DNA of 64,000 nucleotides. It comes from an uncultured Lentisphaerota bacterium (GTDB lineage: Bacteria > Verrucomicrobiota > Lentisphaeria > Victivallales > GWF2-50-93). Location of the stretch: positions 18,337 to 82,336 of the forward strand of contig CAIQLG010000012.1 in NCBI GenBank assembly GCA_903872565.1, read 5' to 3'. Both the position numbers and the translations under genes were made by a program. A model generated the notes under the pieces. That model was not told the DNA's origin and did no database searches. It saw only the letters and a program-made list of their open reading frames with translations. Shown here one piece after another: positions 3,648 to 49,526 of this stretch; position 1 is the first letter of the stretch; every line of letters starts with the position of its first letter.

Positions 3648-6554
3648 TTATGTGTTTAGCCCGAGCATTACAGATTTGACAGTTTTTTTCATTTCTTCAA
3701 TATCATAGGGTTTCTGAATGAAAATGAATCCTCTCTTGTGGATTGCCGCGATCCTTGATTTCTCGTCGGAATATCCGCTTGCGAGAATGACCTTTATCTC
3801 AGGATTTATCTTTTTGAATTCCTCGACAAGGTCCAGCCCATTGCAATCGGTGAGTACGACATCGCTTATCACAAGAGAAAATCTGCCCTTTTCCCTACTG
3901 AAAACTTCCCTGGCGACTTTGCCTGAATCCGCGCACACAATATTCCACCCGTCAGTTTCAAAGATTTCTTTCGCGAGATTTCTCAGTCCTGGTTCATCCT
4001 CTATGAAAAGTATTTTCACATTTTCACGAATGGTTGCAGTTGCAGTTTGTTCCGATATTACGTGAATGTCCTCATCAGCGTAATGGAATGGGAAATAGAT
4101 TTTGAAGGCTGTCCCCTTTCCCGGCGTGCTCTCAACGTCAACCCATCCTTTGTGGTGTTTGACGATTCCATAGACTACCGAGAGCCCGAGTCCCGTGCCC
4201 CTGCCCAAGCCTTTCGTGGTGAAGAACGGCTCGAAGATCCGATTTATCGTTTCCTTGTCCATCCCTGTTCCGTTGTCACAGACGGACAGTCGGACATATC
4301 TGCCCGGAACTGCGGAGATGTTGTCCGAGCATCCTTCCTCATCCACGGTGATATTTTCGGTCATTATAATCAGCGTTCCTCCATCCGGCATGGCATCATT
4401 GGCGTTCACAGCCAGGTTCATGATGATTTGCTCGATATTGGAGGGGTCACCGTTGATCGTCCAGACATCCGGGGTGGCCTTGATTTCGATTTTTATGTTC
4501 TCCGCGATGAGTCGCCTGAGAATTCTCTGCATGTTTAGGACGATGGAATTTATTTCGATAGTTTTAAATGCGACGGGCTGATTCCTGCTGAACATTAGGA
4601 TCTGCTTGGTGAGGCTTGCGGATGTGTCCGAGGCTTTTTTTATTTCGCCGAAATATTTTTTAAAAGGGCTTGAGGCGTCCGTTTTTTTAAGGCCGACCTG
4701 GGCGTATCCGCTTATGACGGTCAGAAGATTATTGAAGTCGTGGGCAATGCCGCCCGCGAGTTGTCCAATCGCCTCCATTTTCTGGGAATGTCTCAGCATT
4801 TCCTCCTTCCTGAGGCTTTCAGTTATATCCAGATCGGATCCCCTGTATCCGAGCAGATTTCCGTCACCGTCCAGGAACGGCACTCCATTTCTAGAAATCA
4901 ATTTTGTTTCACCGCTTTGGGAATTCACGGGCGTCACGAAATTTTTAAAGGCATCTTTGTTCATGAACACGTCGAGCTCTGCCCTTTTCATTTTTTCACT
5001 TTCATCTTCCGGATGGAAGTCGTAGAGGTGCATTTTTCCGACTATCTCCTCCGGTTTGTATCCGAGTATGAATTCAGCACCTTTGCTCACATAAGTGTAA
5101 AGTCCTCCGGCATCCACCTCCCATATCATTTCCCTTGTCTGTTCGGCAATCTGCTTGAATCTTTCCTTGCTCTGGTTCAGTGCCTTTTCAGAGCTGGAGA
5201 TTATGAGATTGGAAATCAACATTCTGTAGCTATACAGGAAAACCGACACGGTGACGGTCATGAAAAGGATTGTCAGGATAATCGGGATCAGCCTGTTCCG
5301 ATATATTGTGCTGTTCCATCTGGCGGCGCTCATGTCCATTCCGAGAATGGCTACAGTCTCGCCGGTTCTCGACATTTTGACGGGGGCGAAACAGCTTAGC
5401 CAAGTTCCCCACCTGTCCGTATATGGTCCGACAATTTTATATTCCCCGTCGCTGAACAAATCATTAACGCATCTCGGGGCATCGTTCCAGATCCGCCCCG
5501 GCGGAGAGCAGTCTTTTGAACCATGCGGTTCTGAATCCACCAGGAAGCTTACTCTGGAGTCATCTCCGACTTTCATCAGATATATGAATCTGTATTCGGA
5601 ACTGATTTCCTTTATTTTGGCGAGCTGTCTCTTAAGGCTCAAGTATGCCTCCGAACACAGATCCGTAGAATTTCCTTTCAGGGCGGGAATTCTTTCCATA
5701 TTTACGGCTTCAGCGACAACCCTGGCATTGGAAATGATGTCAAGTCTGAGTTCTTCATCGGTTCTCCTTCCCGAGATGTCTGTGGCAATTAGGCCTGCCA
5801 GCAGGATGCAAAAAATGATCGGCACATAAATTTTTTTAAACGGTATTCTACGGACCGTGGGCAGTAAATTGGGGGCGGGGATAGAAAAGGAGAAATAGTA
5901 CCATGTGAGACCGGCGGTCAAGGTCATCGCGCATATTCCGCTGGCGCCCTGGAGAGGCAGTCCGAAAAGTTCTCTGAACAATTCGCTGTTTATTGAACTT
6001 GCGGGGAAAAAGTTTGCCCTGGGGACAAAGACACCCATGAGGATTCCGTAGAGGAACATGGCGATGGAACTTAGAATCATGGGATATCGTTTCACATCGT
6101 TTTTTTCTCCTCTTTCCATATAGAATGCATACGATGCCGAAAAAGATCCTGTGATTAGAAAGACATATAGGCTTGCGGATTCATATCCCTTCGTACCGTC
6201 AATCCATCCGAGAGCGGAGAGGAGAAGCGGAAGAATGTATATCCATGCGCCGATACTTGTTATTTTCAGAACCGAAAGGGAACGCCTTCCGAATTCAAAG
6301 ATCGCCAACATTGAAACCGTATTGAAGAAGAACCGTACAATCTCGACATATTCCGGGAACAATGTGAATGGTTTGATGCAGATCGCCAATTCGGAGATTC
6401 CTGTTGAAAAGGTGAAAATTCCGAAGCAGAGGAACGGAAGTCTTTCAGCCTTGTTCTCGTGGAGGAAAAAACATATTATCGATAGAAAGATGAAGGAAAA
6501 TCCATACACGGCAAGCAGATAGTCCATTTGAAATTCGAATGTTACTTCCGGCAT
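3648..6554 (-). CDS. Hybrid sensor histidine kinase (multi-TM N-terminus, sensor region, PAS, HisKA, HATPase_c, C-terminal receiver)
   Basis: 968-aa ORF. Hydrophobic N-terminal ~250 aa. H-box GGIAHDFNNLLTVISGY, G-box GTGLGLSVVYGIV. Receiver ILFIEDEPGLRNL...ISDVVLTDCNG...ILASGY. Confidence 0.9.
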   Translation of the reverse strand: MPEVTFEFQMDYLLAVYGFSFIFLSIICFFLHENKAERLPFLCFGIFTFSTGISELAICIKPFTLFPEYVEIVRFFFNTVSMLAIFEFGRRSLSVLKITSIGAWIYILPLLLSALGWIDGTKGYESASLYVFLITGSFSASYAFYMERGEKNDVKRYPMILSSIAMFLYGILMGVFVPRANFFPASSINSELFRELFGLPLQGASGICAMTLTAGLTWYYFSFSIPAPNLLPTVRRIPFKKIYVPIIFCILLAGLIATDISGRRTDEELRLDIISNARVVAEAVNMERIPALKGNSTDLCSEAYLSLKRQLAKIKEISSEYRFIYLMKVGDDSRVSFLVDSEPHGSKDCSPPGRIWNDAPRCVNDLFSDGEYKIVGPYTDRWGTWLSCFAPVKMSRTGETVAILGMDMSAARWNSTIYRNRLIPIILTILFMTVTVSVFLYSYRMLISNLIISSSEKALNQSKERFKQIAEQTREMIWEVDAGGLYTYVSKGAEFILGYKPEEIVGKMHLYDFHPEDESEKMKRAELDVFMNKDAFKNFVTPVNSQSGETKLISRNGVPFLDGDGNLLGYRGSDLDITESLRKEEMLRHSQKMEAIGQLAGGIAHDFNNLLTVISGYAQVGLKKTDASSPFKKYFGEIKKASDTSASLTKQILMFSRNQPVAFKTIEINSIVLNMQRILRRLIAENIKIEIKATPDVWTINGDPSNIEQIIMNLAVNANDAMPDGGTLIIMTENITVDEEGCSDNISAVPGRYVRLSVCDNGTGMDKETINRIFEPFFTTKGLGRGTGLGLSVVYGIVKHHKGWVDVESTPGKGTAFKIYFPFHYADEDIHVISEQTATATIRENVKILFIEDEPGLRNLAKEIFETDGWNIVCADSGKVAREVFSREKGRFSLVISDVVLTDCNGLDLVEEFKKINPEIKVILASGYSDEKSRIAAIHKRGFIFIQKPYDIEEMKKTVKSVMLGLNT

Positions 6555-6565
6555 TTTATTCTCCC

Positions 6566-7885
6566 TTATTTCCAGTCATTTTCTCTGAAGAGAATGCTTC
6601 TGAATATTTTTTTTGTCAGCGAATGTCCCGATTTGAAGTCCTCGGGATTTGCCATGTAATGTGTTATGACCTTCGTCAGATCCAACATGGAGGCGAGGCG
6701 GTTGCCCGGGGTCTTGTCAAGCATTCTCGCCATTAGATCCTGTAGCCATTCCGGGATTTCCGGATTGATGCTTCTTGGTGCTGGAGGTTTTGCAGTTTTT
6801 ATTTTTTCCATGACCGCGTGAGCAGTTTTTCCCAAGAATGGCCTTTCTCCGGTAAATAGCTCATAGAGGAGGACTCCGAACGAGAAGATGTCTGACTTGG
6901 TGTCGCCTTGTGTTTCACCTCTAAGTATTTCCGGCGCCATGTAGGATGGCGATCCCCTGAGGGTGTCTGTCAAAGTGAGTGACGGGTCGAGAATTTTCGC
7001 TATGCCGAAATCTGTGATTTTCACGCGGATGTCTTCGGTCAGAAGGACATTTTCAGGCTTCAGGTCGCGGTGGAGTATCTTTTTTGAATGGATGTAGTCA
7101 AGTCCCGAAGCAATCTGAAGAGTCACTGAAAGTTTGTCCTCGTCTGTAAGATTTGCATTCTTTATGTAACTGGAGAGTGGTGCTCCGTGGACATATTCCA
7201 TGACGATATACGGCAGATCGTCGCCTTCAAAACCCCCCACGTCAAAAAGTTTGACCACATACGCATTGTCGAGAGACTTGAGGATCTCGGCTTCCCTGTT
7301 GAATCTTTTTTTTGCCAGCCTGTCAATTTCGGATCCTGAGTTGTTCAGAATCTTCATTGCGAAATAAGAGTCGTTTTTTTCAACGAGGAACACAGTTCCC
7401 GCGCCACCTGAGCCGATGGACTTGATCACGGAATATCCGTTTCTGATTTTTCCGACATTGCTGCCTTTCGTCTTTATCCGGCTCCCGTTTTTACGATCAA
7501 GGATAAGTCGGTTAATTTTTTTTTGCAGGTCATCGAGATTGAGTGGCTTGGGAAGATAGTCATAAGCTCCCTCCTTAATGGCTGTTACAGCCGCTTTGAA
7601 ATCAGGAACTCCTGTGACGAGGATGAAATCCGTCTTATTGTCCTTGCTTCTTACAGCTCTTAGAAGTTCGAGTCCAGACATATCCGGCATATTTATGTCG
7701 GAGATTACAAGATCGAAGTGCTTTGAGCTGAGTTTTTTCAGCGCCTCAGATGCCGATATGGCGGTATCAACCGCAAATCCGCTGTCGGCAAGGAAGAGTT
7801 CGAGCACCTGGAGGATTTCGTTCTGGTCATCCACAACAAGGATGGAAAGAAGAGGCAGGACTATTTTTTTTTTTTGCAGTCGCAT
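6566..7885 (-). CDS. Response-regulator receiver fused to Hanks-type Ser/Thr protein kinase (REC-STK 1)
   Basis: Receiver ILVVDDQNEIL...LVISDINMPDMSG...LPKPL. Kinase motifs GSGGAGTVF, AMK, HRDLKPENVLL, DFGIAK, SPSYMAPE. The start overlaps the stop of the upstream kinase across an A12 tract. Confidence 0.9.
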   Translation of the reverse strand: MRLQKKKIVLPLLSILVVDDQNEILQVLELFLADSGFAVDTAISASEALKKLSSKHFDLVISDINMPDMSGLELLRAVRSKDNKTDFILVTGVPDFKAAVTAIKEGAYDYLPKPLNLDDLQKKINRLILDRKNGSRIKTKGSNVGKIRNGYSVIKSIGSGGAGTVFLVEKNDSYFAMKILNNSGSEIDRLAKKRFNREAEILKSLDNAYVVKLFDVGGFEGDDLPYIVMEYVHGAPLSSYIKNANLTDEDKLSVTLQIASGLDYIHSKKILHRDLKPENVLLTEDIRVKITDFGIAKILDPSLTLTDTLRGSPSYMAPEILRGETQGDTKSDIFSFGVLLYELFTGERPFLGKTAHAVMEKIKTAKPPAPRSINPEIPEWLQDLMARMLDKTPGNRLASMLDLTKVITHYMANPEDFKSGHSLTKKIFRSILFRENDWK

Positions 7886-9486
7886 AGCACTTTGCGGAGC
7901 GTTGCGGACAATCCTTCTTCAGTGAAGGGTTTTTCAATGAAATTGATGCCCTTGTCGAGAATTCCACTGTTGGCCATCACATGGGATGTGTAGCCTGACA
8001 TGAATAGGCATTTGATTTTTGGGCGCATTGCGGTGATTCTCTTTCCGAGATCCTGTCCGTTCATTCCCGGAAGCACCACATCTGTCATCAGAAGATGAAT
8101 GTCTCCCTCGTCCTCCTTCGCCAGTTTGATTGCTTTGGCCGGGCTGTCCGCAGCCAGCACTGCATAGCCCATATGTTCAAGCTGCATTTTTGTAAGACAC
8201 AGCAAGGATGCCTCATCCTCTACCAGAAGGATAGTTTCATTTCCTCTGAGTATTTCGGAACTTCCAGGTGTCTCATCGGTTTCCTTATTTTCCGATTTGT
8301 ACCGCGGAAGATATATCTTGAATGTTGACCCCAGCCCAATTTCACTGTAAACATTGATGCATCCGTTGTTCTGCTTTACGATGCCGAAGACAGTGGAAAG
8401 ACCAAGGCCGGTTCCATTTTCGGTTTTTTTGGTGGTGAAAAACGGATCAAACAGGTGGGATATGGTCTCCTTGTCCATCCCGCATCCATTGTCTCCGACC
8501 GAGAGCACGACATATTCTCCTGGGACAAACTCGATGTGCGCCTTGCAATAGGCCGGGTCCAACTTGGAGTTGTAAGTCTCAATTGTCACCTTGCCGCCGT
8601 CGGCGACTGCATCACGGGCGTTGATGAGAAGGTTGGTAAGAATCTGATCAAGATGGGAGGAGTCCATCTTTACTGTCCAAAGTTTGGCGGCGGGTTTCCA
8701 TTGCAGTTCAATATTTTCACCAAGAAGCCTGTGCAGCATATTCAGCATGCTTTCAATGCTGTCGGCAATGTTCAGCTCTTTCATCGAGATGGGCTGTTTG
8801 CGGGCGAATGCGAGAAGCTGGTGGGTGAGGTCTGCGGAGCGTTGCCCTGCCTTTCTGATTTCCATCACACTGTCATACATCGGATTTGAAGAGGCAATCT
8901 CCTTTAGCAGCATCTGCGAATGTCCGTTGATGACAGCGAGCATATTGTTGAAATCGTGCGCGATACCGCCTGCCAGCTGACCTACAGCTTCCATCTTCTG
9001 AGCCTGACGAAGCTGAGATTCCAGATTTTCACGCTCCGCATTAAATGTCCGCTCCCATTCCTCCTTCGCTTTGAGCAGGCGCTCCATGGCCATATGGCGT
9101 CCCAGGGCGTAACACAGGACGCGCGCCAACAACAGCCCCGACACCTGGTCGCTCATGTGGCCTTTCATAATGTAGTCCTGCGCGCCTTCCTGTATTGCCG
9201 CCAGCCCCATTCTCTCATCGTCATTTCCGGTCAGCACGACAATTGGGATATCGGTGTCGGCTCTCCTCATTGCTCTCAAGGTTTCCAGCCCACTGCTGTC
9301 CGGCAGTTCCAAATTCAGAAGGATAATGTAGAATGGACCTTGCCTGGCGAGTTCAATGGCATCCGAAAGCCGCTGCACACATTTGATTTCAAACCTCGAC
9401 TCGCCGTCTGTTGCCAGCAACTCCCGTATCAAGCGGACATCGGCCGGGTTGTTTTCAACCAGCAGGACGTGTAACCTCTCAGTCAT
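7861..9486 (-). CDS. Hybrid histidine kinase with N- and C-terminal receiver domains (REC-HisKA-HATPase-REC)
   Basis: VLLVENNPADVRL...LLNLELPDSSG; H-box GGIAHDFNNMLAVINGH; GTGLGLSTVFGIV; second receiver ILLVEDEASL...LMTDVVLPGMNG. SD AAGGAG lies upstream of ATG 9486. Confidence 0.9.
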   Translation of the reverse strand: MTERLHVLLVENNPADVRLIRELLATDGESRFEIKCVQRLSDAIELARQGPFYIILLNLELPDSSGLETLRAMRRADTDIPIVVLTGNDDERMGLAAIQEGAQDYIMKGHMSDQVSGLLLARVLCYALGRHMAMERLLKAKEEWERTFNAERENLESQLRQAQKMEAVGQLAGGIAHDFNNMLAVINGHSQMLLKEIASSNPMYDSVMEIRKAGQRSADLTHQLLAFARKQPISMKELNIADSIESMLNMLHRLLGENIELQWKPAAKLWTVKMDSSHLDQILTNLLINARDAVADGGKVTIETYNSKLDPAYCKAHIEFVPGEYVVLSVGDNGCGMDKETISHLFDPFFTTKKTENGTGLGLSTVFGIVKQNNGCINVYSEIGLGSTFKIYLPRYKSENKETDETPGSSEILRGNETILLVEDEASLLCLTKMQLEHMGYAVLAADSPAKAIKLAKEDEGDIHLLMTDVVLPGMNGQDLGKRITAMRPKIKCLFMSGYTSHVMANSGILDKGINFIEKPFTEEGLSATLRKVLCDCKKKK

Positions 9487-9863: not shown

Positions 9864-10550
9864 TCAGAAGGACATCGGAGCCAGTCCCGCAGCTTCGATC
9901 TTCATATTCTGTCCTTCCTTCCTTTTATCAGCCATGGTAGCGCTTAAGTCACGCCAGTGGGAAGCGCCCTGTTTTATCTCTTCCCTGCTCTGCATTCTTT
10001 TCGACCGGAGATTTTTCAGCATTATTTTCAGGTCCTGTATCCGTACCGCCGTTCCCTTCTCCAGGAGGCTCTGTAGCAATTCGGCTGCCATCTTGCGGTC
10101 GCGGTTGAAATCCGTCAGCATGTCACGAACCTCTTCTTCCCGTGATTTCTGGCTGGCCTGAATGTCCGTGATTATCTTTCGGAACTCATTTATTCTTTCC
10201 GATTCTCCTTCAAGGTGATCAGTCTTGTGCTTCTCGATGTTTTCCCTGATGGTCTTGGCGGCTTCCTTCTGTTCATCAAGATATGCCTTCAACAGATTTC
10301 TGGTTTCGCCTTCCCTTGATTCCTGTGATTCCAGTATCTCCTTCATCATAATATCAAAATCTTTTTTCCGCAGTGAGTCCTCCTTGGCCAGAGTTTCCCT
10401 CAGCTGTGTGCTCATGGCGCTTCGTTTTTCCCTGAAATCATCGAGCATCTGATGGGTATTGTCAATGATTGTGCAGACGGCCGAAATTCTGGATTCGTAG
10501 GAGGAGACTATTTCCTCCGTAAGTTTTCTCATATCTTCCGCATTGTTCAT
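9864..10550 (-). CDS. Coiled-coil protein of unknown function (paralog A), immediately downstream of gvpA genes
   Basis: 228 aa, rich in E/K/R/Q heptad-like sequence. AGGAG SD. N-terminus MNNAEDMRKLTEEIVSSYESRISAV matches its neighbour. Shared internal block YLDEQKEAAKTIR-N-I--HK-DH. Confidence 0.65.
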   Translation of the reverse strand: MNNAEDMRKLTEEIVSSYESRISAVCTIIDNTHQMLDDFREKRSAMSTQLRETLAKEDSLRKKDFDIMMKEILESQESREGETRNLLKAYLDEQKEAAKTIRENIEKHKTDHLEGESERINEFRKIITDIQASQKSREEEVRDMLTDFNRDRKMAAELLQSLLEKGTAVRIQDLKIMLKNLRSKRMQSREEIKQGASHWRDLSATMADKRKEGQNMKIEAAGLAPMSF

Positions 10551-10621: not shown

Positions 10622-11347
10622 TCACGATCCCGTCTTCTCTATCTGTTTAAAATAATCCAGCATTATTATGGGAGATACTGTGAGAATTCTCCGCTGTGCC
10701 ATGTACATGTTCTGTCTGTCCGTGGCGATTAGTCCACGCCATTGGGATATCGTGTGCTTGAACACTTCCCACCATCCTTCGGAATGATGGCTCTTATGTC
10801 TTACCATTATTGTCGGACATTGGGTCTTGTCATCAGTTTCCTTCACCATGAAGATTTGAAGAAATTCAATTGTCATCTTATGTTTATTGTAGATAGTTTT
10901 CAGCATGTCGCGCAGTTCAATGTCGTGCTGTTTCTCGCTGACTCTCTGACTGGCATGGACATCGGCGATCCAGCTTCGGAATTCATTTATTCTTGCCGCA
11001 TCCACCTCAACGTGATCAATTTTGTGTCTTCCAATGTTTTTTCTGATAGTCTTAGCGGCTTCCTTCTGTTCATCGAGATAGATATTCAATAAAATTCTTG
11101 TTTCGTTTTCAATAGCCTCCTGGGGGCCAAGTATCTCCGTCATCATCCTGTCAAACTCTTTTTCGCAAAATGATTTTTCACGGGCGAACGTTTTCTTGAG
11201 CTGCATGCCCATAACACTGCGCTTTTCACTGAACCCGTCCAGTATCTGACGTGTATTGTCAACCATTGCACAGGCTGCCGAAACTCTGGATTCGCAGGAG
11301 GAGATTAATTCAGCCATCAGTTTTCTCATGTCTTCAGCATTGCTCAT
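10622..11347 (-). CDS. Coiled-coil protein of unknown function (paralog B)
   Basis: I trimmed the start to ATG 11347 (MSNAEDMRKLMAELISSCESRVSAA), which aligns with paralog A and has a GGGAG SD. The ORF-track start 11413 adds 22 unaligned residues. Confidence 0.65.
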   Translation of the reverse strand: MSNAEDMRKLMAELISSCESRVSAACAMVDNTRQILDGFSEKRSVMGMQLKKTFAREKSFCEKEFDRMMTEILGPQEAIENETRILLNIYLDEQKEAAKTIRKNIGRHKIDHVEVDAARINEFRSWIADVHASQRVSEKQHDIELRDMLKTIYNKHKMTIEFLQIFMVKETDDKTQCPTIMVRHKSHHSEGWWEVFKHTISQWRGLIATDRQNMYMAQRRILTVSPIIMLDYFKQIEKTGS

Positions 11348-11445
11348 AAAGATTGCTCCCGTTCTTAGGATATGGATTACTGGCGAACCATGCTTGGCAA
11401 CCGTCGGCTGCAAGGACGACTCGGCAGGTACCCATGTTTTGGTTT

Positions 11446-11652
11446 TTAGGCCGCTGTAGCTGTCAGACCGATAGCTTCAGCATACTTCAGATACGTTTCG
11501 ACTGACGCGACCACAACTCTGGCTTCAACTGCCAGAAGTTCTATCCCGACGAGGGATACCCTGACCCATGCGTCAACCACGATACCTTTGTCAAGTATGC
11601 GGTCCACAACTTCAACAAGACTCGAACTGCCGATTGTTTTTTCCACTGCCAT
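11446..11652 (-). CDS. gvpA: Gas vesicle structural protein GvpA (copy 1)
   Basis: The 68-aa product [68 protein letters not shown] is a textbook GvpA sequence. AGGAG SD. Confidence 0.95.
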
Positions 11653-11747: not shown

Positions 11748-11954
11748 TTACGCTGCCGTAGCTGTCAGACCGATAGCTTCAGCATACTTCAGATACGTTT
11801 CGACCGACGCGACCACTACTCTAGCTTCAACTGCGAGAAGCTCGATACCAACCAGTGATACCCTGACCCATGCGTCAACAACGATACCCTTGTCCAATAT
11901 GCGGTCAACAACTTCGACCAGACTGGAACTTCCGATTGTTTTCTCCACTGCCAT
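11748..11954 (-). CDS. gvpA: Gas vesicle structural protein GvpA (copy 2, product identical to copy 1)
   Basis: Same 68-aa product. The ORF-track start 11963 is a GTG inside the SD GGGGGTGA, so ATG 11954 is preferred. Confidence 0.95.
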
Positions 11955-12017: not shown

Positions 12018-12033
12018 AGCATGAAGGATGCCA
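12018..12033 (-). promoter_or_regulatory. Candidate sigma54 (-24/-12) promoter upstream of gvpA copy 2
   Basis: The minus strand reads TGGCATCCTTCATGCT (GG-N10-GC spacing), about 65 nt upstream of ATG 11954. Near-identical elements occur at three other sites in the window. Confidence 0.5.
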
Positions 12034-12440: not shown

Positions 12441-13769
12441 TCAGCTCCAAGTTTTGTGGAAGATTTCCTTAATGAAACTTTTCTTGTAGTTATTTTCGTA
12501 TTTGGTTTTTTCATACCTGTCGAGTTCCTGAATGATTTCGGAGACACTGCCATATCTGTTGTCAGGTAATTTCTCGAGCATTTTGCCGACGATATCACGG
12601 AGCATCATCGGCAACTTGTTGTTTAATTTCATTGGGTCTTCAGGTTTTGACTTCATGATGCTCTCTTTTATTCCGGAGAGGCCTGCGCCCGCAAAAGGCC
12701 TTTTCCCTGCGAGGATTTCATAGCTTATCACACCGAGGGAGAAAATGTCGGCTCTCTCGTCGATCTTGTTTATATTGTCGAAGCTTTCAGGCGCCATGTA
12801 TGTCGGCGAACCTAGCATTGCATTGGTCATCGTCAGTTCGGAGTCAAACACGCGAGCGACTCCGAAGTCTATGAGTTTGCATTCATCTTCTCTGGTTATA
12901 ATGACATTCTGAGGTTTGATGTCCCTGTGAAGTACCCCATAACTATGAACAATTTGAAGAGCTGATGCAATCTTTCTCATGATTGAAACAGCCTGTCCAG
13001 TCTGTATATGAGTTGATTTCATGTACTCATCGAGGGTGTTTCCTGGAAGATACTCCATTATTATGTAAGGTATCTCTCCCTGTTCCGAGAGTCCGTATTC
13101 AACTAATTTTATGATATTGGGATGGCTGATGCTTGAAATGATTTTTGCTTCTCTGAAAAATCTTTTGACTTTTTCAATCGAGAATGTTTTCGATCCGAAC
13201 ACCTTCATTGCATAATACACTTTTTCCTTTTCAACCAGGAAGACTTTGCAGATGCTTCCCGAACCTATTTCCTTAATGACCTTATAACCCGCAGGCGGGT
13301 AAAGAGTAATTCCGGCAAGAGTTTCCTTATTGTAAAAAAGAGCTTTGTCAAGGATGTCCTTGAATTTCTTGAGGTTAAGTGGTTTAGTGAGGACATCGAG
13401 GGCGCCTCCTATGAGTGCATCAAGGGCGGTGTCAGGAGCATTCTCAAGATCCTTCGCGTCGCAGACTATGATCATTTTTGTGCTCTGCGAGTTTTCTGTG
13501 CAGAAATGCAGAAGATCCATGGCTGTTGATTTCCCCTGGACGTTGTAATCGCAGAAGACAAGCGCGTAGTAGAAGTTCTTGAATAGCTTTAAGGCCTTTT
13601 CCGATCTGTCGCACGTCTGAATTTCATATCCGAGATGCCCCAGCTCCCTTTCAAGAAGCTGTACGATAAGATCCTCGTTTCCAATAACGAGTATCCTGGG
13701 GACAAAAGGGTCGCCCTTGTTTTCCAGTATCCTTGTCTTGACATTCGGATCGTCTTCTTCGCTGATCAT
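12441..13769 (-). CDS. Degenerate receiver domain fused to Hanks-type Ser/Thr protein kinase (REC-STK 2)
   Basis: Kinase motifs GSGSICKVF, AMK, HRDIKPQNVII, DFGVAR, SPTYMAPE. The N-terminal receiver-like fold keeps the phospho-acceptor position (LVFCDYN) and LTKPL, but the acidic pair is replaced (VIGNED). Confidence 0.85.
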   Translation of the reverse strand: MISEEDDPNVKTRILENKGDPFVPRILVIGNEDLIVQLLERELGHLGYEIQTCDRSEKALKLFKNFYYALVFCDYNVQGKSTAMDLLHFCTENSQSTKMIIVCDAKDLENAPDTALDALIGGALDVLTKPLNLKKFKDILDKALFYNKETLAGITLYPPAGYKVIKEIGSGSICKVFLVEKEKVYYAMKVFGSKTFSIEKVKRFFREAKIISSISHPNIIKLVEYGLSEQGEIPYIIMEYLPGNTLDEYMKSTHIQTGQAVSIMRKIASALQIVHSYGVLHRDIKPQNVIITREDECKLIDFGVARVFDSELTMTNAMLGSPTYMAPESFDNINKIDERADIFSLGVISYEILAGKRPFAGAGLSGIKESIMKSKPEDPMKLNNKLPMMLRDIVGKMLEKLPDNRYGSVSEIIQELDRYEKTKYENNYKKSFIKEIFHKTWS

Positions 13770-13970: not shown

Positions 13971-15293
13971 TCAACTCCATGGATTATCAATGAGCAGCAT
14001 GCTTTTCAGGAATTTTGATGTTATTGTATCATTCACAGGCGCCTTGTCATCCTCGTTTTTCTGATGGAATTCTATTGATTCAATGATTTTTCCGGCCGTC
14101 GGATAACGATTCTCCGGATTTTTCGTCATCATCTTTGCGATGGTATTCTGAAGCCAGGAGGGAATATCAGCATTGATTTTTTTTGGTTCGAGGGGCTTCC
14201 TTGTCTTTATCGCCTCCATTACCTGGAATACATTATCGCCTGGAAAGGCGCGCCGGGATGTCACGAGTTCATAGCAGAGCGATCCGAGAGAAAATATGTC
14301 GGACCTATTGTCTAGTGTCTTGGCGGAATCGAAGCTTTCGGGAGCCATATAATGGGGAGATCCCATCACATCATCCATCATCGTGAGCGATGATTCCTGC
14401 GTTTTAGAGATTCCGAAGTCGCTTATCTTCACCTGCGAGTTTTGTGTTATCATTATGTTGTCGGGCTTGATATCTCTGTGGATGAAGCCCAGACTGTGGA
14501 TATAATCAAGCACCGATGCAAGTTGCTTGATTATGTGAATGCGCAACTTGATGTCCATCGCAGTGTTTGCAATATAGTCCGAAAGCCGAGATCCATCTAT
14601 ATATTCCATGATTATGAAAGGAGTGCCGACATCCGGCAGGATACCATACTTATATACCTTGACAATGTTCCGATGATCCATTTCCTCCAAGATTTTAAAT
14701 TCGCGGAGAAATCTTTTCACGGATATTTCATGCTTTTCAGGGGAGTCTTTCTTCTTCATTATCTTCATCGCGTAACTGGCGCAATTTTTCTCGACTAGCA
14801 GAACTAGGCCGCTATTCCCTGAGCCAAGTGATTTCAATATCTTGTATTTTCCCGTCTGGAAAAAAACGGAGTCAAGGATCTGCTCCTCGGAGCTTTTCAC
14901 CTCGCTTCCCTGTTCCGCAAGTGCCGAATTTATTTTAGCGGCCAGATTATTCAGATCGATAGGCTTGGCTATATAATCTAAAGCGCCTTCCTTGATCGAA
15001 CTGACTGCATCTTTAAGATCCGGATGCCCAGTCATCAATATTATATGCATCGCAGGGCAGTGTTTTCTGCAGTAAGTAAGGAATTCAAGCCCGTTCATCC
15101 CCGCCATCCGGACATCAACCAGTGCAAGGCTAAATACGGTGTCTGCCATAAGTCCAAGCGCATCACTGCAATTTCCCGCAGTTGAAACCGAAAAAGATTC
15201 TGAAAGTGCGGTGTTCAGGAATTCACGAACATTATCCTCGTCATCAACAACGAGGATATTTTTCTTGACATTTGTTATCTCAGGATATAACAT
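13971..15293 (-). CDS. Response-regulator receiver fused to Hanks-type Ser/Thr protein kinase (REC-STK 3)
   Basis: Receiver ILVVDDEDNVREF...LALVDVRMAGMNG...IAKPI. Kinase GSGNSGLVL, AMK, HRDIKPDNIMI, DFGISK, SPHYMAPE. GAGGGAG SD. Confidence 0.9.
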   Translation of the reverse strand: MLYPEITNVKKNILVVDDEDNVREFLNTALSESFSVSTAGNCSDALGLMADTVFSLALVDVRMAGMNGLEFLTYCRKHCPAMHIILMTGHPDLKDAVSSIKEGALDYIAKPIDLNNLAAKINSALAEQGSEVKSSEEQILDSVFFQTGKYKILKSLGSGNSGLVLLVEKNCASYAMKIMKKKDSPEKHEISVKRFLREFKILEEMDHRNIVKVYKYGILPDVGTPFIIMEYIDGSRLSDYIANTAMDIKLRIHIIKQLASVLDYIHSLGFIHRDIKPDNIMITQNSQVKISDFGISKTQESSLTMMDDVMGSPHYMAPESFDSAKTLDNRSDIFSLGSLCYELVTSRRAFPGDNVFQVMEAIKTRKPLEPKKINADIPSWLQNTIAKMMTKNPENRYPTAGKIIESIEFHQKNEDDKAPVNDTITSKFLKSMLLIDNPWS

Positions 15294-15333
15294 CTGACTC
15301 CCTCTTCCGTATCAGATAATAAAGGAAAAAGGC

Positions 15334-15568
15334 ACACGCTAAAGCCGTGAACTCCAGCAAATTATTATCTTGACATAAGCATTCACTAAATAAAAATGGC
15401 ACTAAGTCAAGGGTTTCTTCTGAAGTAACTCGGGTCTATTGACCCGAGAATCGCGGGTCAGATAGACCCGCGCTACTCTGGGATGAGCCTTAACTTGGTG
15501 GCATTCCACTAAATAACGCATAGTTCACTCCTTTGAAACTGCCGTTGGAGTTCACGGCTTTAGCGTGT
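15334..15568. repeat. 235-bp palindromic element with 23-bp perfect terminal inverted repeats, carrying a second nested MITE-like element (15395..15505)
   Basis: ACACGCTAAAGCCGTGAACTCCA (15334..15356) is the exact reverse complement of 15546..15568. The inner element has imperfect ends (AATGGCACTAAGTCAAGGG / GCCTTAACTTGGTGGCATT). It carries the same two GC hairpins as 12293..12393 in opposite orientation. It is flanked by CACTAAATAA at 15384..15393 and 15507..15516. Confidence 0.7.
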
Positions 15569-15660
15569 TCTTTTCTTGGCAGTTTCATATTGACAAAACT
15601 GCGGACACCGCAGTAAAACGCTGAATACCTACGCTTCGTGTGTCTGTGAGATAATACTTT

Positions 15661-16413
15661 TTAACTTGCTGCAATTTTCAGATTGACAAAATTGAACGGA
15701 GGCACCTCACACACATATTTAAGTTTTATTCTCTTACCGTATTTTGTGTCAATATCGTTGACTTTCCTGTAAAACGCCTCCTCCTTGTCCACTTCCACAA
15801 GGAACGCGGCATTTATAATCATCCTCACGCCGAAAGCATTGTTGATTTTCACTTCTACGGCGAGAGGGGAAAGAATCCTCAATATCTCCTTCTTTAGAAT
15901 TTCAACTTCCGCCCGCAGCGCGGCCTCGACCATTTCCCCTATCTTCATCCGCTGTGGATAGGTTTTCTCTGGAGGCTTGGCAATTATAGACATTTTTAAT
16001 TTATTGATGTCCTTATGCTTTTCCAGGATATAGCTGTATATGGCTTCCTCAATGAAAACCGCTTTCACTCCCAGCTCTTTTTTATTGTCGAGCTTTTTCA
16101 GCAGTTCTTTGAATTTGACATTTTCTTTCCTCAATATTTCCAGTATCTCGACATCGGTTGCGATTATGCCGAATCTGACAGGAAGCACGCCTGCAAATTC
16201 CTTCATCACTACATCGATCACCTTTGCGTGAGCCAGCATATTTTCCCGGCTGGCGGTAATTTTGGCGATGGGATGACTGCTTGCGACCATTCTCATATCC
16301 TCATGGCCGATGGTTGAAACCTCATCTCCCCTGCCACCCACCCCGATTGGACCGAAACTTCTATCATGGATTGAAGGGATAATGCAATAAATATACTTTC
16401 CGTCCTGTGCCAT
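15661..16413 (-). CDS. gvpF: Gas vesicle assembly protein, GvpF/GvpL family
   Basis: 250 aa. The N-terminus MAQDGKYIYCIIPS...FGPIGVGG...V..I....MRMVAS and overall layout are typical of the GvpL_GvpF family. Located in a gvpA context. Confidence 0.85.
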   Translation of the reverse strand: MAQDGKYIYCIIPSIHDRSFGPIGVGGRGDEVSTIGHEDMRMVASSHPIAKITASRENMLAHAKVIDVVMKEFAGVLPVRFGIIATDVEILEILRKENVKFKELLKKLDNKKELGVKAVFIEEAIYSYILEKHKDINKLKMSIIAKPPEKTYPQRMKIGEMVEAALRAEVEILKKEILRILSPLAVEVKINNAFGVRMIINAAFLVEVDKEEAFYRKVNDIDTKYGKRIKLKYVCEVPPFNFVNLKIAAS

Positions 16414-16538
16414 AAAAAAACCTTTAATATGAGAAAATAATGGATGTTCGATTCATCTTGTCTGTTGGAAGTACCGCAGAGTCAAGGACAAGTGGCCTGG
16501 GATATCACACCCAGAAGCACTGCATTCATCCCTCCTGT

Positions 16539-17255
16539 TCAGCAGACAATCACTACGCTGTTGACAGAACAGAACACATTTGGCTCGAACCTTATGGCAT
16601 TAGGATCCGGTATCCATTGGCCGTCAACAATGAACTTGTATTGGTATTCTCCGGGTGCAAGTACCATCAAGGCCTGGAATTCCCTTCCCTGTCTTGTCAT
16701 CGGCTCCGGGATCCAGTTGTTAAAATCGCCAGCCAGGCAGACCTCTCCAGCTTCCGATTCGGCAGGCCAACTGAATTTGTGAGTTTTCCCAGTCTTTTTT
16801 TTCGTCTCGTAGCCGGACTGACATTTGCCCACGGAGCACTCCTTAGCCGTCGCCTTCTTCTGCGTCTTTTTCTTCCCCATCATTCCAACCTCCTTTTCCA
16901 CTTTAGCTGTTTGTATCATATTCTCGGATAATGACATAATCTTGTTAGATTTGACATCTTCTCCTATTTCATCACATAGAAGTCTCTTGAAAAACATCTT
17001 GATGGTGCTGATAGCCCTGGATGCGTCGGCACCAATCGCGGAGATGGTGAATATGGCACCTCCCGGGATGCCAAGCGTGATGATGTCCAGCAGGCTCTTG
17101 GCATCCGCCTTTCTATCATTGTATTCGATAAACACATCGGATTCGAACTGTCTTGACACCTTCACAAGCAGTGAAACAGGACGCATATGCATGGCGACAA
17201 TCTTGTCAAGGATTACCTCAATACTACATGTCGGGCAATTATACGGCAAGCCCAT
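16539..17255 (-). CDS. Fusion of HPr-like phosphocarrier domain and AMPK-beta/CBM48-type glycogen-binding domain
   Basis: I trimmed the start to ATG 17255 (strong GGAAGGAGAG SD). HPr-like VAMHMRPVSLLVK (His15 position) and NDRKADAKSLLDIITLG (Ser46 position). The C-terminus FSWPAESEAGEVCLAGDFNNWIPEPMTRQGREFQALMVLAPGEYQYKFIVDGQWIPDPNA resembles the AMPK beta-subunit glycogen-binding module. Lys-rich linker. Confidence 0.75.
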   Translation of the reverse strand: MGLPYNCPTCSIEVILDKIVAMHMRPVSLLVKVSRQFESDVFIEYNDRKADAKSLLDIITLGIPGGAIFTISAIGADASRAISTIKMFFKRLLCDEIGEDVKSNKIMSLSENMIQTAKVEKEVGMMGKKKTQKKATAKECSVGKCQSGYETKKKTGKTHKFSWPAESEAGEVCLAGDFNNWIPEPMTRQGREFQALMVLAPGEYQYKFIVDGQWIPDPNAIRFEPNVFCSVNSVVIVC

Positions 17256-17356
17256 CGTTACTCTCCTTCCAGTTAAATGATTTCTCTTTAAATCAGATTT
17301 TATTTCCGTTGCCCTCGGATGGCCATAAGCCTGCGGGATTTCTGGCAGATTGGTAT

Positions 17357-17713
17357 CTATATGCCACCCAATGAACATTTGGCATGTCCGGCCTCAAGAA
17401 GCGCCTCCCAAATTTTCATCATTTCAGGGGGGAGGCATTTGCTCATGATTCTTTCGGGATCCACCGGATCAATGAAATGAGCAAGTTCGTGTGCAATAAC
17501 AGGCACCAATCCAAGCCGATATTTAGGTTCAAGAATGCTACTATTGCTGTAATGCAGGACTACCTTGGTAGTTTTTCCAAAGAGAGCACGTCCCATTACT
17601 CCCTCGAAAGAATCATCGTACACGACTTCAAAGGAGATACCCTGAAGTTCCGGGAAATATTTATTCCGCACGGACTCCATAAAAGCAACAACTTCGAGTT
17701 CATTATCAGTCAC
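17357..17713 (-). CDS. Small putative zinc metallopeptidase-like protein (HExxH)
   Basis: 118 aa, GTG start with GAGAGGTGA SD. Single VIAHELAHFIDP motif. No further family recognised. Confidence 0.55.
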   Translation of the reverse strand: MTDNELEVVAFMESVRNKYFPELQGISFEVVYDDSFEGVMGRALFGKTTKVVLHYSNSSILEPKYRLGLVPVIAHELAHFIDPVDPERIMSKCLPPEMMKIWEALLEAGHAKCSLGGI

Positions 17714-17818
17714 TTAATCACCTCTCATCCGGTCTTAATGCGAGTATGCAAAACACCCCAGACCCACACTTTGCGCAGGCCTAAGGATTGATTTTTTCAG
17801 ATGGCCGCAGGGTTGGTT

Positions 17819-17977
17819 TCAGTCCTCTGCTGTTGCGAGTGCCACAGCTTCAGCATACTCCAGATAGATTTCGACCGAGGGCACAACAATTCTGGCCTCA
17901 ACCTCGATACCTTTGTCCATCACGCGATCCATAGCTTCGACCAGGCTTGGACTTCCGCTTGTTTTTTCCGCTGTCAT
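17819..17977 (-). CDS. 52-aa GvpA-like protein lacking the central beta-hairpin (in-frame 16-residue gap relative to GvpA)
   Basis: Below the ORF-track length cutoff; I translated it by hand: [52 protein letters not shown]. It aligns with GvpA residues 1-24 and 41-68. SD GGGGAATACC and a sigma54-like element lie upstream. Confidence 0.6.
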
Positions 17978-18074
17978 GGTATTCCCCTTGTTTTACAATT
18001 CCCTTTTTTTCAGAACAGAAGCACCATCTTTTCAGATTTTTAATGCTTTATTCTTCTTTTCCAGCATTATATAT

Positions 18075-18090
18075 AGCAGGATTGATGCCA
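18075..18090 (-). promoter_or_regulatory. Candidate sigma54 (-24/-12) promoter upstream of the short gvpA-like ORF
   Basis: The minus strand reads TGGCATCAATCCTGCT, preceded by CAGCTATA as at the gvpA copy 2 element. About 100 nt upstream of ATG 17977. Confidence 0.5.
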
Positions 18091-18256
18091 TAAGTTATAG
18101 CTGGTGTTTTCATAAGTTCCTATCTTTATTAATATAAACATCTTGCATATATACAAAAAAATAATATGTCAAAATATACGGTGTCTGAAGGCTTCCTATA
18201 TGGTGATTATATGGGACAAATCCGGGCAGAATGGTTGGATTTGCCACAGAAAAGAA

Positions 18257-18393
18257 GGGAGGGGAAAGAATGGGAATTATGGGAGGAACGGGAATTATGG
18301 GAATTATAATTTTGTGTCCCTAGATTTGCTTGGCGGAAGTCTTTCCGCACAAGCAAATCTATAAGTTTCCACAATTGGGAGAATTGTGGAAAC
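18257..18393. repeat. G3-N6 periodic array followed by a 41-nt nested hairpin and a 12-bp-stem hairpin
   Basis: GGGAGGGGAAAGAATGGGAATTATGGGAGGAACGGGAATTATGGG (18257..18301). TAGATTTGCTTG-GCGGAAGTCTTTCCGC-ACAAGCAAATCTA (18321..18361). GTTTCCACAATT-gggag-AATTGTGGAAAC (18365..18393). Confidence 0.75.
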
Positions 18394-18551
18394 GTCATCT
18401 GAATATTTTTCTATGCATGAACCGCATACCCGCATCCTTTTTACTCAAAAGATGGCGCGGAATGAAAAATGCGGCGGCATGGAGCAAGTGTCCAAGCTCC
18501 ATGTCAATGTCAGAATAAATATGTTTTATGGCCGGGATGCCGTCCGTGATC

Positions 18552-19073
18552 CTATGCGGTCAGCGGCAGACCTTTATATGTCCATCTGTACGGTTTCGCC
18601 ATAGTCCTGTTGAAATAGGAAATGAACATTTCCATCTTATCCCCGAGATCGCCTTCATGCCCGGTCAATTCCGCAACCATTCGGACAAGAGTTTCGGACA
18701 TATGGGTGTTGAGCTGGTCGCTGATGAATATCCATTGGTCTTTCCGCCTGTCTCCTATTGTAGAGGCTATATGCTCTGCGAAATCCTGTTCGTTCCGCGT
18801 CTCGCCAATATGATGACGGACTATTTTTCCTGTGGCTACTTCAAAAGAGGGTATCAAGGAAAGTGTGCCATGCCGCATGTATTCGAACTCGATCTTCTCG
18901 GGATGACCGGCTATCATCGGCTTCGTCGGCGCAACCCGCTCCAGCGCCTGGATGCCGGTCTTTTCATCTGTCGAGATCAAATGCGTGCCAGCATCATGAA
19001 GCTCGGAGGCATGTGAATAAAGGCCGCAGATCTCCGTCTCGCGGTCATGGCCGAGTTCGTCAAATGGGCAGGC
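18552..19073 (-). mobile_element. IS630-family transposase relic (pseudogene: N-terminal HTH region missing, internal deletion removing the end of the DDE domain)
   Basis: ...FDELGHDRETEICGLYSH...LISTDEKTGIQALER...EFEYMRHGTLSL...FISDQLNTHMSE... jumps directly to ...FISYFNRTMAKPYRWTYKG. The open frame extends upstream of the ORF-track TTG start to a stop at 19074..19076. No inverted repeats of an intact IS were recognised. Confidence 0.75.
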
Positions 19074-31976: not shown

Positions 31977-31979
31977 AAA

Positions 31980-33089: not shown

Positions 33090-33163
33090 GAAAGGAATTT
33101 ATCGAATGAACAGCAGCAAACTCCTGAGCCCATTGAAACGTGCGCTCCTAAGGAATAAATAAA

Positions 33164-35331: not shown

Positions 35332-35530
35332 CGGGGGAATCTTCAGGCTTGAATCATAGTCATCCCACAGGATGACGGATTGATGGATTTTTGGATTGCC
35401 CGCCTTCGTCCAATTCGGACTACGGCGTGGCATGTTGGATTATTGGTTTTGAGTTAAGAAAAAGCAAAGACGCATGGAATTGGAATTGAAATAAAAAAAG
35501 GCATTTTGAAAAAAAATGAGGAAAATAAAT

Positions 35531-36514: not shown

Positions 36515-36612
36515 AAGCCTGAAGTTATAGAGAAAAACATGAGGAAGTGTAACCTCAAGAGCAGGAATAATTTTTGTGTCGGAAATTAAATTTATTCAGG
36601 GATTGCAGCAAA

Positions 36613-38199: not shown

Positions 38200-38238
38200 A
38201 AAATCAAGAACATTTTGCAATGAAGGTCTAATTACATT

Positions 38239-39378: not shown

Positions 39379-39408
39379 TGAAAATAAAAAATTAAAAAAG
39401 GACATGAC

Positions 39409-42916: not shown

Positions 42917-43059
42917 GCTGATTTCAAAATTCTGATTTGCAGTCGCCCCCCGTTGGAGTTCACAACTTTAGTGTGCTTTTTATAGCCTCAATAAGACACG
43001 CTGACCTGTCTGCGTGCAGCGCACAGGCAGAAGCCGTGAACTCCAACATTGAAATCAGC
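42917..43059. repeat. Nested palindromic repeat of the GTGAACTCCA family
   Basis: GCTGATTTCAA (42917..42927) pairs with TTGAAATCAGC (43049..43059). Inner arms TTGGAGTTCACAACTTTAGTGTG and CACGCT...AAGCCGTGAACTCCAA are homologous to the termini of 15334..15568. Confidence 0.65.
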
Positions 43060-49510: not shown

Positions 49511-49526
49511 TGGCATCCTTCCTGCT
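49511..49526 (+). promoter_or_regulatory. Candidate sigma54 (-24/-12) promoter upstream of the secreted peptidase gene
   Basis: TGGCATCCTTCCTGCT on the + strand, one mismatch from the gvpA copy 2 element. About 88 nt upstream of ATG 49614. Confidence 0.5.

Follow-up and report, generated by a model that had tools for sequence, protein, structure and literature searches.

The phosphocarrier protein HPr is a hub of bacterial carbon signalling. What is known of its control over glycogen phosphorylase comes from Escherichia coli, where HPr binds this enzyme with a Ka of about 6e7 per M, activates and phosphorylates it, and places the residues H15, R17 and F48 at the interface (PMC13324651). A related bacterium of the Planctomycetes-Verrucomicrobia-Chlamydiae (PVC) group is thought to use a rudimentary regulatory phosphotransferase system (PTS) that senses phosphoenolpyruvate (PEP) and pyruvate (PMC5148204). 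Glycogen itself is bound by carbohydrate-binding modules (CBM) of the AMPK-beta type (PMC6274970). Here we describe a gene that unites an HPr domain with such a module; it resides on the minus strand (positions 16539 to 17255) of a 64-kb stretch of DNA, hereafter referred to as the window, which derives from an uncultured Lentisphaerota bacterium (contig CAIQLG010000012.1) and is found in lake-water metagenomes. We read the encoded protein, at a probability of roughly 0.55, as an HPr-type phospho-regulator tethered to glycogen granules, and the copy in the window as a duplicate that was recruited into a unit of gas-vesicle (gvp) genes.

The HPr-CBM48 fusion and its start site

An original prediction, made from the letters of the DNA, had proposed an HPr domain fused to an AMPK-beta/CBM48 module, and both domains pass formal hidden Markov model searches and fold tests. 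PTS-HPr (Pfam PF00381) is matched with 61.5 bits (cut-off 23, E 8e-17) and AMPK1_CBM (Pfam PF16561) with 54.2 bits (cut-off 26.8, E 1.7e-14); with scores so far beyond chance, it is near certain that the HPr plus CBM48 architecture is real. The HPr family model of NCBIfam (TIGR01003) is matched with 57.6 bits at a cut-off of 47.9. None of the NCBIfam equivalog models (HPr, NPr, Crh-type, fused PTS protein) reaches its cut-off for this protein, the models of HPr parts of multidomain PTS proteins give weak, sub-threshold matches, and the generic CBM_48 model (PF02922) stays under its threshold (13.5 versus 22.4 bits). The gene and the parts of its product, with the evidence for each of them, are as follows:

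16539..17255, minus strand: HPr-linker-CBM48 coding sequence (protein P0001), 238 amino acids (aa), stop codon included; open reading frame (ORF), Pfam and NCBIfam
17261..17270, minus strand: Shine-Dalgarno-like sequence GGAAGGAGAG, 5 nt 5' of the ATG at 17255; read directly
16977..17231, minus strand: HPr-family domain, residues 9-93; AlphaFold2 (AF2) model, Foldseek and gapless phmmer alignment
16788..16976, minus strand: Lys-rich linker, predicted disordered, residues 94-156; predicted local distance difference test (pLDDT), family identity and the ratio of non-synonymous to synonymous substitution rates (dN/dS)
16542..16787, minus strand: AMPK-beta-type CBM48 alpha-glucan-binding module, residues 157-238; PF16561, Foldseek and alignment

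The longest ORF at the locus is 16539..17378 (minus strand, 279 aa), and the original prediction had named a start at 17378 as a possible threat to the HPr fold. We uphold the ATG at 17255 as the likely true start of the gene, because it is preceded by the Shine-Dalgarno-like site, because the starts of the closest homologues (239 and 240 aa) fall on the corresponding residue, likewise behind purine-rich Shine-Dalgarno-like sites, and because the ATG at 17378 falls within the preceding 118-aa ORF (17357..17713). A start at 17378 would merely add 41 N-terminal residues and leave the HPr fold undisturbed. Two ORFs on the plus strand (16440..16931 and 16825..17280) overlap the gene; the minus-strand frame is the coding one, since it is this frame that has homologues and is under purifying selection. 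No hydrophobic N-terminal segment or signal peptide can be read from the sequence, and the protein is thus expected to be cytoplasmic.

Both regulatory sites of HPr were found where the original prediction had put them: AMHMRP (17178-17195) contains the His15 codon (17187-17189) and AKSLL (17088-17102) the Ser46 codon (17094-17096). In a gapless phmmer alignment to HPr structures from Gram-positive bacteria, AMHMRP aligns to GIHARP of 1y4y and 2hpr and AKSLL to LKSIM, so that H23 corresponds to His15, R25 to Arg17, P26 to Pro18, K53 to Lys45, S54 to Ser46 and L56 to position 48; His15 stands in an H-x-R-P context and Ser46 in a K-S-[ILV] context. The AF2 model, which was built on an 18-sequence alignment of the family, has pLDDT values of about 81-96 over residues 9-93, mostly above 90, and its predicted order of secondary-structure elements (E-H-E-E-H-E-H) is that of the open-faced beta-alpha-beta-beta-alpha-beta-alpha sandwich of HPr. 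When this predicted model was compared with the Protein Data Bank (PDB) by Foldseek, the N-terminal domain matched HPr from Thermoanaerobacter tengcongensis (3lfg, 3le3) with template modelling (TM) scores of 0.87-0.88. By score, fold and motifs the protein is hence a member of the HPr family, but not by architecture: it is neither a stand-alone HPr of ~85-90 aa nor a fusion to other PTS domains, and its HPr domain is joined to CBM48 via a linker of 63 aa.

The Lys-rich linker that had been predicted between the two domains is confirmed and predicted to be disordered (pLDDT below 50 for residues 94-151). The predicted TM score of the AF2 model is 0.46; therefore, no fixed orientation of the two domains towards each other is predicted. 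Residues 157-237 are all beta strand in the model, and Foldseek superposed this predicted module on the CBM of AMPK beta1 (1z0m/1z0n) with a TM score of 0.94, a root-mean-square deviation (rmsd) of 1.1 Å over 82-83 columns and 38-41% identity. The cyclodextrin-bound CBMs 4yef and 4yee were also matched, with superpositions of about 1.1-1.4 Å. Alignment to rat AMPK beta1 (through GDFNNW, YQYKF and DGQW) equates W181, K207 and W214 with W100, K126 and W133 of the AMPK protein, and when the register is extended, F228, S230 and N232 correspond to L146, T148 and N150; L146 and N150 we take to be carbohydrate-contacting residues in the 1z0m structure. The sugar-contacting positions are invariant or nearly so among the 18 members of the family. 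In AMPK beta1, the substitutions W100G and K126Q abolish glycogen binding by the CBM, while W133L and G147R weaken it (PMC6274970).

The protein terminates one residue past the CBM and contains no further Pfam domain. It is not a homologue of AMPK beta as a whole protein, because the region that interacts with the alpha and gamma subunits is absent. The close resemblance to eukaryotic AMPK beta that had been claimed for the C-terminal part stands with respect to fold and residues, but its specifically eukaryotic character does not: at E<=1e-10, a profile search with the family yielded 2,956 proteins, and the best 150 of these consist almost entirely of CBM-repeat or CBM-only proteins. The AMPK-beta likeness is common to a large family of bacterial CBMs.

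Two pairs of cysteines, C7 and C10 (a CxxC motif near the N-terminus) and C140 and C145 (CxxxxC in the linker), are partly common to the window protein and its relatives P0002, P0003 and P0008 and are not found in the rest of the family; they may form a lineage-specific metal or redox site.

The HPr-CBM48 protein family

When 5.8 billion proteins were searched by a word index, only six full-length relatives came up. An exhaustive profile search, run over 1.84 billion cluster representatives and with its hits inspected afterwards, increased the family to at least 13 representative clusters (50% identity), and both Pfam domains are present in 15 clusters (90% identity) that a second profile search listed. 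The scan of genomes used two CBM peptide patterns and missed variant motifs, so the taxonomic range given here is a lower bound: all three of the members that could be placed come from metagenome-assembled genomes (MAGs) of Victivallales (Lentisphaerota). Full-text searches of the literature found no paper describing an HPr-CBM48 protein, in line with the statement of the original prediction that no characterised example of the fusion was known, and the source databases annotate the members as 'HPr family protein' only. The HPr-CBM48 proteins are a rare and uncharacterised family that is associated with Victivallales in its placed members.

Both domains are present in all 18 aligned members (198-261 aa). 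Mean pairwise identity amounts to 45% in the HPr domain and 49% in the CBM, and to 10% in the linker, whose length varies between 20 and 84 residues; R17, P18 and K45 of HPr and W100, W133 and N150 of the CBM are invariant in 18 of 18. The closest relative, P0002, shares 65% amino acid identity with the window protein, and the nucleotide similarity of the two genes (76%) is restricted to the coding sequence. The dN/dS values for this pair are 0.24 for the HPr domain, 0.20 for the CBM and 0.65 for the linker. This contrast in identity and in dN/dS shows that both domains are under purifying selection and that the linker behaves as a spacer.

An identical protein (P0001) is encoded on seven contigs from several samples. 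In four lake metagenomes (X1 to X4), the sequencing depth of the P0002 locus (18.2, 9.4, ~8 and ~5) matches that of the window core (17.6, 8.5, ~7 and ~6) in every run, which suggests that P0001 and P0002 are two paralogues in one genome. The segment of the window that holds the gvp genes has depths of 12-14, 8-11, 7.8 and 4.4 in the same runs and is perhaps absent from some cells in one sample. The organism that carries the relative P0009 is absent from the four lake runs, which can therefore not be used for co-variation.

P0008, a 134-aa relative with 61% identity, consists of linker and CBM only and keeps the same sugar-binding residues. It was considered as the product of a split gene; as no HPr remnant lies upstream of it, this was rejected in favour of a genuine single-domain paralogue. 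Partial HPr matches in loci of Planctomycetota and Myxococcota were likewise discarded, because they turned out to be fusions of ParA/MinD to CBM48, as was a match in locus L041, a small CBM-only protein. The ParA/MinD-type ATPases with a C-terminal AMPK-beta-type CBM48 (L028:1709-3037, L032:9410-10618 and L026:9416-10510; P0026-P0040) deserve mention in their own right, as they could position or partition glycogen granules. A word-indexed search with the HPr domain alone recovered two truncated close relatives and nothing on a stand-alone HPr of Victivallales.

Genomic neighbourhoods of the relatives

Nine other members of the family have readable neighbourhoods. Those of note are:

P0002: metH on one side; kaiC-kaiB-kaiB and a PAS kinase on the other side
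P0058 (39% identity, Victivallales MAG): divergent from kaiC
P0006 and P0009: directly 3' of a PAS-HATPase kinase; beside a response regulator (RR) of the RR-GerE type and a large PAS/GAF kinase
P0007: 3' of a PAS kinase
P0178: after a CheB-CheR-PAS kinase and an RR-GerE regulator
P0175 and P0094: housekeeping-type neighbours

Sensor kinases or KaiC adjoin the gene in seven of the nine; gvp genes stand beside none of them, and Hanks-type kinases are not among the recurrent neighbours across the family. The kinase/KaiC setting is ancestral and the copy in the gvp island is derived. The former is the older one because adjacency to KaiC is common to P0002 and the much more distant P0058, and the latter is peculiar to the lineage of the window because gvp genes are missing from all nine other contexts. 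Small ORFs of 54-71 aa that adjoin the fusion gene elsewhere are homologous neither to each other nor to the gvpA-like gene of the window, and there is hence no conserved small partner.

One of the neighbouring kinases is unusual. It is encoded directly 5' of P0009, an HPr-CBM protein with Tyr at position 15, in MAG GCA_945883805 (L004:8171-9796, plus strand) and has the order PAS-PAS-DHp-like-HATPase_c; the His of its H box is replaced by Ser (MAGSIASCFKNQL versus LAGGIAHDFNNML in a kinase of the window), and its N, G1 and G2 boxes are intact. Pfam HisKA was found neither in this kinase nor in the one upstream of P0006. A kinase lacking the His next to an HPr domain lacking the His hints, from this single kinase sequence, at a possible pair of Ser kinase and substrate.

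The gvp island in the window

The window gene sits in a co-directional array of 15 kb on the minus strand. Read 5' to 3', the array comprises a 52-aa gvpA-like gene, a 118-aa ORF, the HPr-CBM48 gene, gvpF, two Ser/Thr kinases with receiver (REC) domains and two identical gvpA genes, followed by two coiled-coil paralogues, a gene with the order RR-histidine kinase (HK)-RR, a third REC-Ser/Thr kinase and a PAS hybrid kinase; the intergenic gaps around the HPr-CBM48 gene measure 101-125 bp. Its location among gvp genes, as originally described, is thus correct, but it does not lie directly between gvpF and the gvpA-like gene, because the 118-aa ORF intervenes. The proximity to Ser/Thr kinases is borne out by the three REC-Ser/Thr kinases of the island. 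The protein itself has no match to Gvp models of Pfam or NCBIfam and is not a Gvp. The features of the island are:

18552..18980, minus strand: DDE_3 transposase fragment at the island edge; Pfam
18075..18090, minus strand: sigma54-type -24/-12-like motif TGGCATCAATCCTGCT, 98 nt upstream of the gvpA-like gene
17819..17977, minus strand: gvpA-like gene, 52 aa; NCBIfam GvpA models match below cut-off, alignment
17357..17713, minus strand: orphan ORF, 118 aa, with an HExxH motif (AHELAH); immediately upstream of the HPr-CBM48 gene, co-directional
15661..16413, minus strand: gvpF; Pfam GvpL_GvpF with 185 bits, 125 bp downstream of the HPr-CBM48 gene, co-directional
13971..15293, minus strand: REC-Ser/Thr kinase 1; Pfam Response_reg and Pkinase
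12441..13769, minus strand: REC-Ser/Thr kinase 2; Pfam
12018-12033, minus strand: sigma54-like motif, 64 nt upstream of gvpA1
11748-11954 and 11446-11652, minus strand: tandem identical gvpA genes; alignment
7861-9486, minus strand: RR-HK-RR gene, flanking kinase 3
6566..7885, minus strand: REC-Ser/Thr kinase 3; Pfam
3648-6554, minus strand: PAS hybrid histidine kinase, flanking kinase 3

A third sigma54-like motif is found at 49511-49526 (plus strand), upstream of a Peptidase_C1 ORF. All three motifs are intergenic and precede co-oriented genes. The pattern TGGCAT-N6-TGCT occurs three times in the window versus 0.27 times expected, and none of 100 shuffles reaches three, a statistic that is generous since the pattern was set post hoc after the first two sites. 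We regard TGGCATCAATCCTGCT as the candidate promoter of a unit consisting of the gvpA-like gene, the 118-aa ORF, the HPr-CBM48 gene and gvpF. The co-directional unit with its sigma54-type motifs suggests that the HPr-CBM48 gene is transcribed as part of a gvp unit and that, in the lineage of the window, its expression is probably coupled to that of the gas-vesicle genes. Scans for sigma70 promoters and intrinsic terminators over 15200-18600 remained at chance level, and the island gave no hit in Rfam or tRNA scans.

On a 70-kb sister contig that encodes an identical HPr-CBM48 protein, a full transposase of 363 aa takes the place of the DDE_3 fragment, and the main gvp cluster lies beyond it, with several gvpF/L genes, an actin-like 'Volactin' gene, gvpG, gvpK and a sigma54 activator, which the sigma54-like motifs of the island fit. 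The window departs from the sister contig at the truncated DDE_3 gene (region up to about 19600), due either to a rearrangement mediated by an insertion sequence (IS) or to an assembly ambiguity. A metagenome search at JGI with the GvpF of the island returned two short contigs without HPr-CBM that carry orthologues of a different gvpF (in the order actin-like/gvpF/gvpG) and are uninformative with respect to linkage.

The gvpA-like gene has a clean internal deletion of 16 aa relative to both full gvpA copies, unchanged on four contigs, and its 52-aa product could be either a pseudogene product or a mini-GvpA. The 118-aa ORF, which adjoins the HPr-CBM48 gene on all contigs encoding P0001, has no match in Pfam, NCBIfam, PDB sequences or, with a single-sequence model, Foldseek; its predicted topology is a helix, three strands and helices. 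The two paralogous coiled-coil-like proteins just 3' of the tandem gvpA genes (9864-10550 and 10622-11413, minus strand; 228 and about 241-263 aa) match no known family and may be GvpC-like or accessory proteins of the gas vesicle. A perfect 22-bp inverted repeat, TGGAGTTCACGGCTTTAGCGTG (15335-15356, minus strand, and 15546-15567, plus strand), brackets ~190 bp of the intergenic region between gvpF and the REC-Ser/Thr kinase; a second, imperfect pair is present at 42954-42975 and 43024-43045, and the repeat may be a small repeated element or one resembling a miniature inverted-repeat transposable element.

The rest of the window encodes BNR/sialidase-like proteins, many URO-D-like proteins, FAD oxidoreductases, esterases and sensor kinases. 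Six genes of the URO-D family (methyltransferase-like), interrupted by a gene of the mannitol-dehydrogenase family, form an unusual local expansion at 30909-39378 (plus strand). A class-III aminotransferase gene (39400-40700, plus strand) is represented in the four lake metagenomes by many short variant contigs and has 2-3 times the depth of its flanks, which suggests multiple copies or strain variants of this stretch.

Proposed function and alternative explanations

In the reading that we prefer, the CBM48 module would anchor the protein to glycogen (alpha-glucan) granules, and the flexible, basic tether of ~60 residues would allow the HPr domain to reach proteins at the granule surface. The phospho-state of this domain would carry information on carbon or energy to or from the granule, with phosphorylation occurring via His15 (by an Enzyme I (EI)/PEP-type donor), via Ser46 (by an ATP-dependent kinase), or via both. 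By analogy with E. coli, the likeliest local target would be glycogen phosphorylase or another granule-bound enzyme. The window copy would be a diverged duplicate of the KaiC-linked copy that was inserted into the co-directional regulatory and structural gvp unit. These components differ in their standing. Judged from the conserved sugar-binding residues, on which the granule tether rests, glycogen binding by the CBM48 module is quite probable, and a phospho-signalling role of the HPr domain is somewhat better than an even bet; glycogen phosphorylase as the target, an argument by analogy, is a tentative proposal, and functional coupling to gas vesicles in the lineage of the window is doubtful. 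As a general property, the link between carbon reserve and buoyancy that the original prediction considered plausible is not supported, given that none of the nine other members is near gvp genes and the window copy looks like a lineage-specific duplicate.

Several observations weigh against the preferred reading. Genes of the PTS (EI, HprK, EIIA) and glg genes are found nowhere in the 64-kb window, and PTS or glg genes stand beside none of the nine other members with readable neighbourhoods. His15 is kept in 14 of the 18 aligned proteins and is Tyr in one subclade (P0006, P0007, P0009, P0042); Ser46 is kept in 16 and is Arg in P0073 and P0097. Because of these replacements, transfer from EI to His15 is not a mechanism universal to the family. 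At position 48, where E. coli HPr has the Phe that it buries in glycogen phosphorylase, the window protein has Leu. The equivalent of G147, a position at which the substitution G147R partly weakens the glycogen binding of AMPK beta1 (PMC6274970), is Cys, in this protein alone among the 18. With regard to co-expression with the gvp genes, a terminator-like hairpin that follows the gvpA-like gene could attenuate read-through, the statistic for the sigma54-like motifs is, as said, generous, and no RNA runs holding the gene were found.

The HPr-like domain might instead function outside the PTS, as an acceptor or docking module of the Ser46 type for adjacent ATP-dependent kinases (PAS-HATPase kinases, KaiC and, in the window, the REC-Ser/Thr kinases), with the CBM sensing glycogen as AMPK beta does and without regulation of glycogen enzymes. 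This would agree with the sensor kinase or KaiC gene that is directly adjacent, and often co-directional, in seven of nine contexts, as against none with PTS or glg genes, with the invariant K45, the prevalence of Ser46 and the loss of His15 in a whole subclade, with the absence of Pfam HisKA from the kinases upstream of P0006 and P0009, and with the replacement of the H-box His by Ser, next to intact ATP-binding boxes, in the one readable upstream kinase of the Tyr15 subclade. Yet 14 of 18 members, the window protein among them, have the complete H-x-R-P motif, which argues that most lineages retain His chemistry; the His-less kinase is one sequence, and in genomes as rich in signalling genes as these, neighbouring two-component genes are commonplace; moreover, we know of no precedent for the phosphorylation of HPr by KaiC or by a histidine-kinase-like protein. 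On balance, we find this explanation somewhat unlikely. Still more speculative, and in our estimate improbable, is the idea that HPr-CBM48 proteins are a bacterial counterpart of the AMPK beta glycogen sensor, with a granule-bound HPr phospho-switch that would be written by, or would gate, the adjacent ATP-dependent kinases: KaiC, the His-less kinases and the REC-Ser/Thr kinases. If it were true, glycogen load would feed into temporal programmes and, in the window lineage, into the balance between gas vesicles and ballast carbohydrate on which the vertical position of the cells in the lake depends.

While the preferred reading takes the gvp setting as a later recruitment, the protein could be a dedicated buoyancy regulator that reports the state of the glycogen store to the island's two-component proteins and REC-Ser/Thr kinases and thereby couples reserve, or ballast, to gas vesicles. 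On all contigs where it occurs, the gene has gvp genes on both sides; it belongs to a co-directional array with sigma54-like motifs before the gvpA-like gene and gvpA1, and the main gvp cluster contains a sigma54 activator. It is a distinct paralogue that selection maintains, and in cyanobacteria carbohydrate ballast and gas vesicles are known to interact (PMC13538572, PMC12837670). We nevertheless hold this to be unlikely: gvp linkage is seen in zero of the nine other members, the placement could be incidental in a region that is edged by an IS fragment and rearranged between contigs, and the island depth below that of the core in one run (12-14 versus 17.6) suggests a flexible region. The CBM48 module, in turn, might not be a glycogen anchor at all but a surface for protein-protein contacts or for another polymer, the HPr domain then being an ordinary soluble paralogue. 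In structures of the AMPK holoenzyme, activator-bound examples of which are among the Foldseek matches, the beta CBM also contacts the kinase domain, and both the Cys in place of G147 and the sub-threshold match to generic CBM_48 would be compatible with such a role; it is made very improbable by the conservation (invariant or nearly so) of all five sugar-contacting positions across 18 members, by the superposition of the predicted fold on cyclodextrin-bound CBMs at about 1.1-1.4 Å, by the same residues in the CBM-only paralogue P0008, and by the lack of a signal peptide, which leaves cytoplasmic glycogen as the obvious alpha-glucan. Finally, the nearby transposase fragment and the adjacent truncated gvpA-like gene could be taken as signs of a decaying, functionless duplicate that was moved by an IS-mediated rearrangement, an explanation we can hardly credit for an intact ORF with a Shine-Dalgarno-like site, an identical product on seven contigs from several samples, dN/dS values of 0.2-0.24 in both domains and all catalytic and binding residues retained.

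With the granule-tethered phospho-regulator as the preferred reading, the natural fusion of HPr to a CBM provides independent evidence of the Rosetta-stone type for an axis between HPr and glycogen in a distant phylum, the Lentisphaerota of the PVC group, and it suggests that HPr signalling can be restricted to one site in the cell, the surface of the granule. At 238 aa, the protein is a compact and readily expressed object for testing whether bacteria sense their glycogen load as eukaryotes do via AMPK beta. The family also bears on whether His-less HPr variants pair with His-less kinase-like proteins, and on whether KaiC-type timers or gas-vesicle programmes receive an input from the carbon store. 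If the link to gvp holds, the gene would give molecular access to the way in which heterotrophic lake bacteria control their buoyancy.

Comparison with known systems

The HPr-glycogen phosphorylase pair of E. coli resembles the system proposed here in that an HPr-family protein acts in glycogen metabolism, and the interface residues H15 and R17 are present in the window protein. It differs in that the E. coli protein is a free HPr of 85 aa, whereas the one described here is tethered to a glycogen-binding module, has Leu48, and belongs to a bacterium of the PVC group. With the beta subunits of AMPK, SNF1 and SnRK1, the protein has in common the CBM family, the fold (38-41% identity, rmsd 1.1 Å), the sugar-binding residues and the principle of a signalling module on glycogen; in contrast to them, it has no alpha/gamma-binding region, is not part of a kinase heterotrimer and has a phosphocarrier attached, and its CBM family is widespread in bacteria.

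The Tyr15 subclade (P0006, P0007, P0009, P0042) is reminiscent of Crh from Bacillus subtilis, since it keeps Ser46 without the His, and Crh structures are among the phmmer hits. The window protein, however, keeps His15, and Crh, which acts together with CcpA and HprK in Firmicutes, has a single domain. FPr/FruB, DhaM and the EI-HPr-EIIA fusions likewise have an HPr joined to another module by a flexible linker; there, the partners belong to the PTS, whereas here the partner is a non-catalytic carbohydrate-binding module. The delivery of a module to a glucan granule by a CBM is known from plant PTST1 (with CBM48), an analogy of principle only, and laforin and SEX4 are likewise signalling or non-catalytic modules that are brought to the glucan granule by a CBM. 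These three proteins are eukaryotic, and their other domains are unrelated. Set against all of these systems, both component modules of the window protein are known; what is new is their union in the rare HPr-CBM48 architecture.

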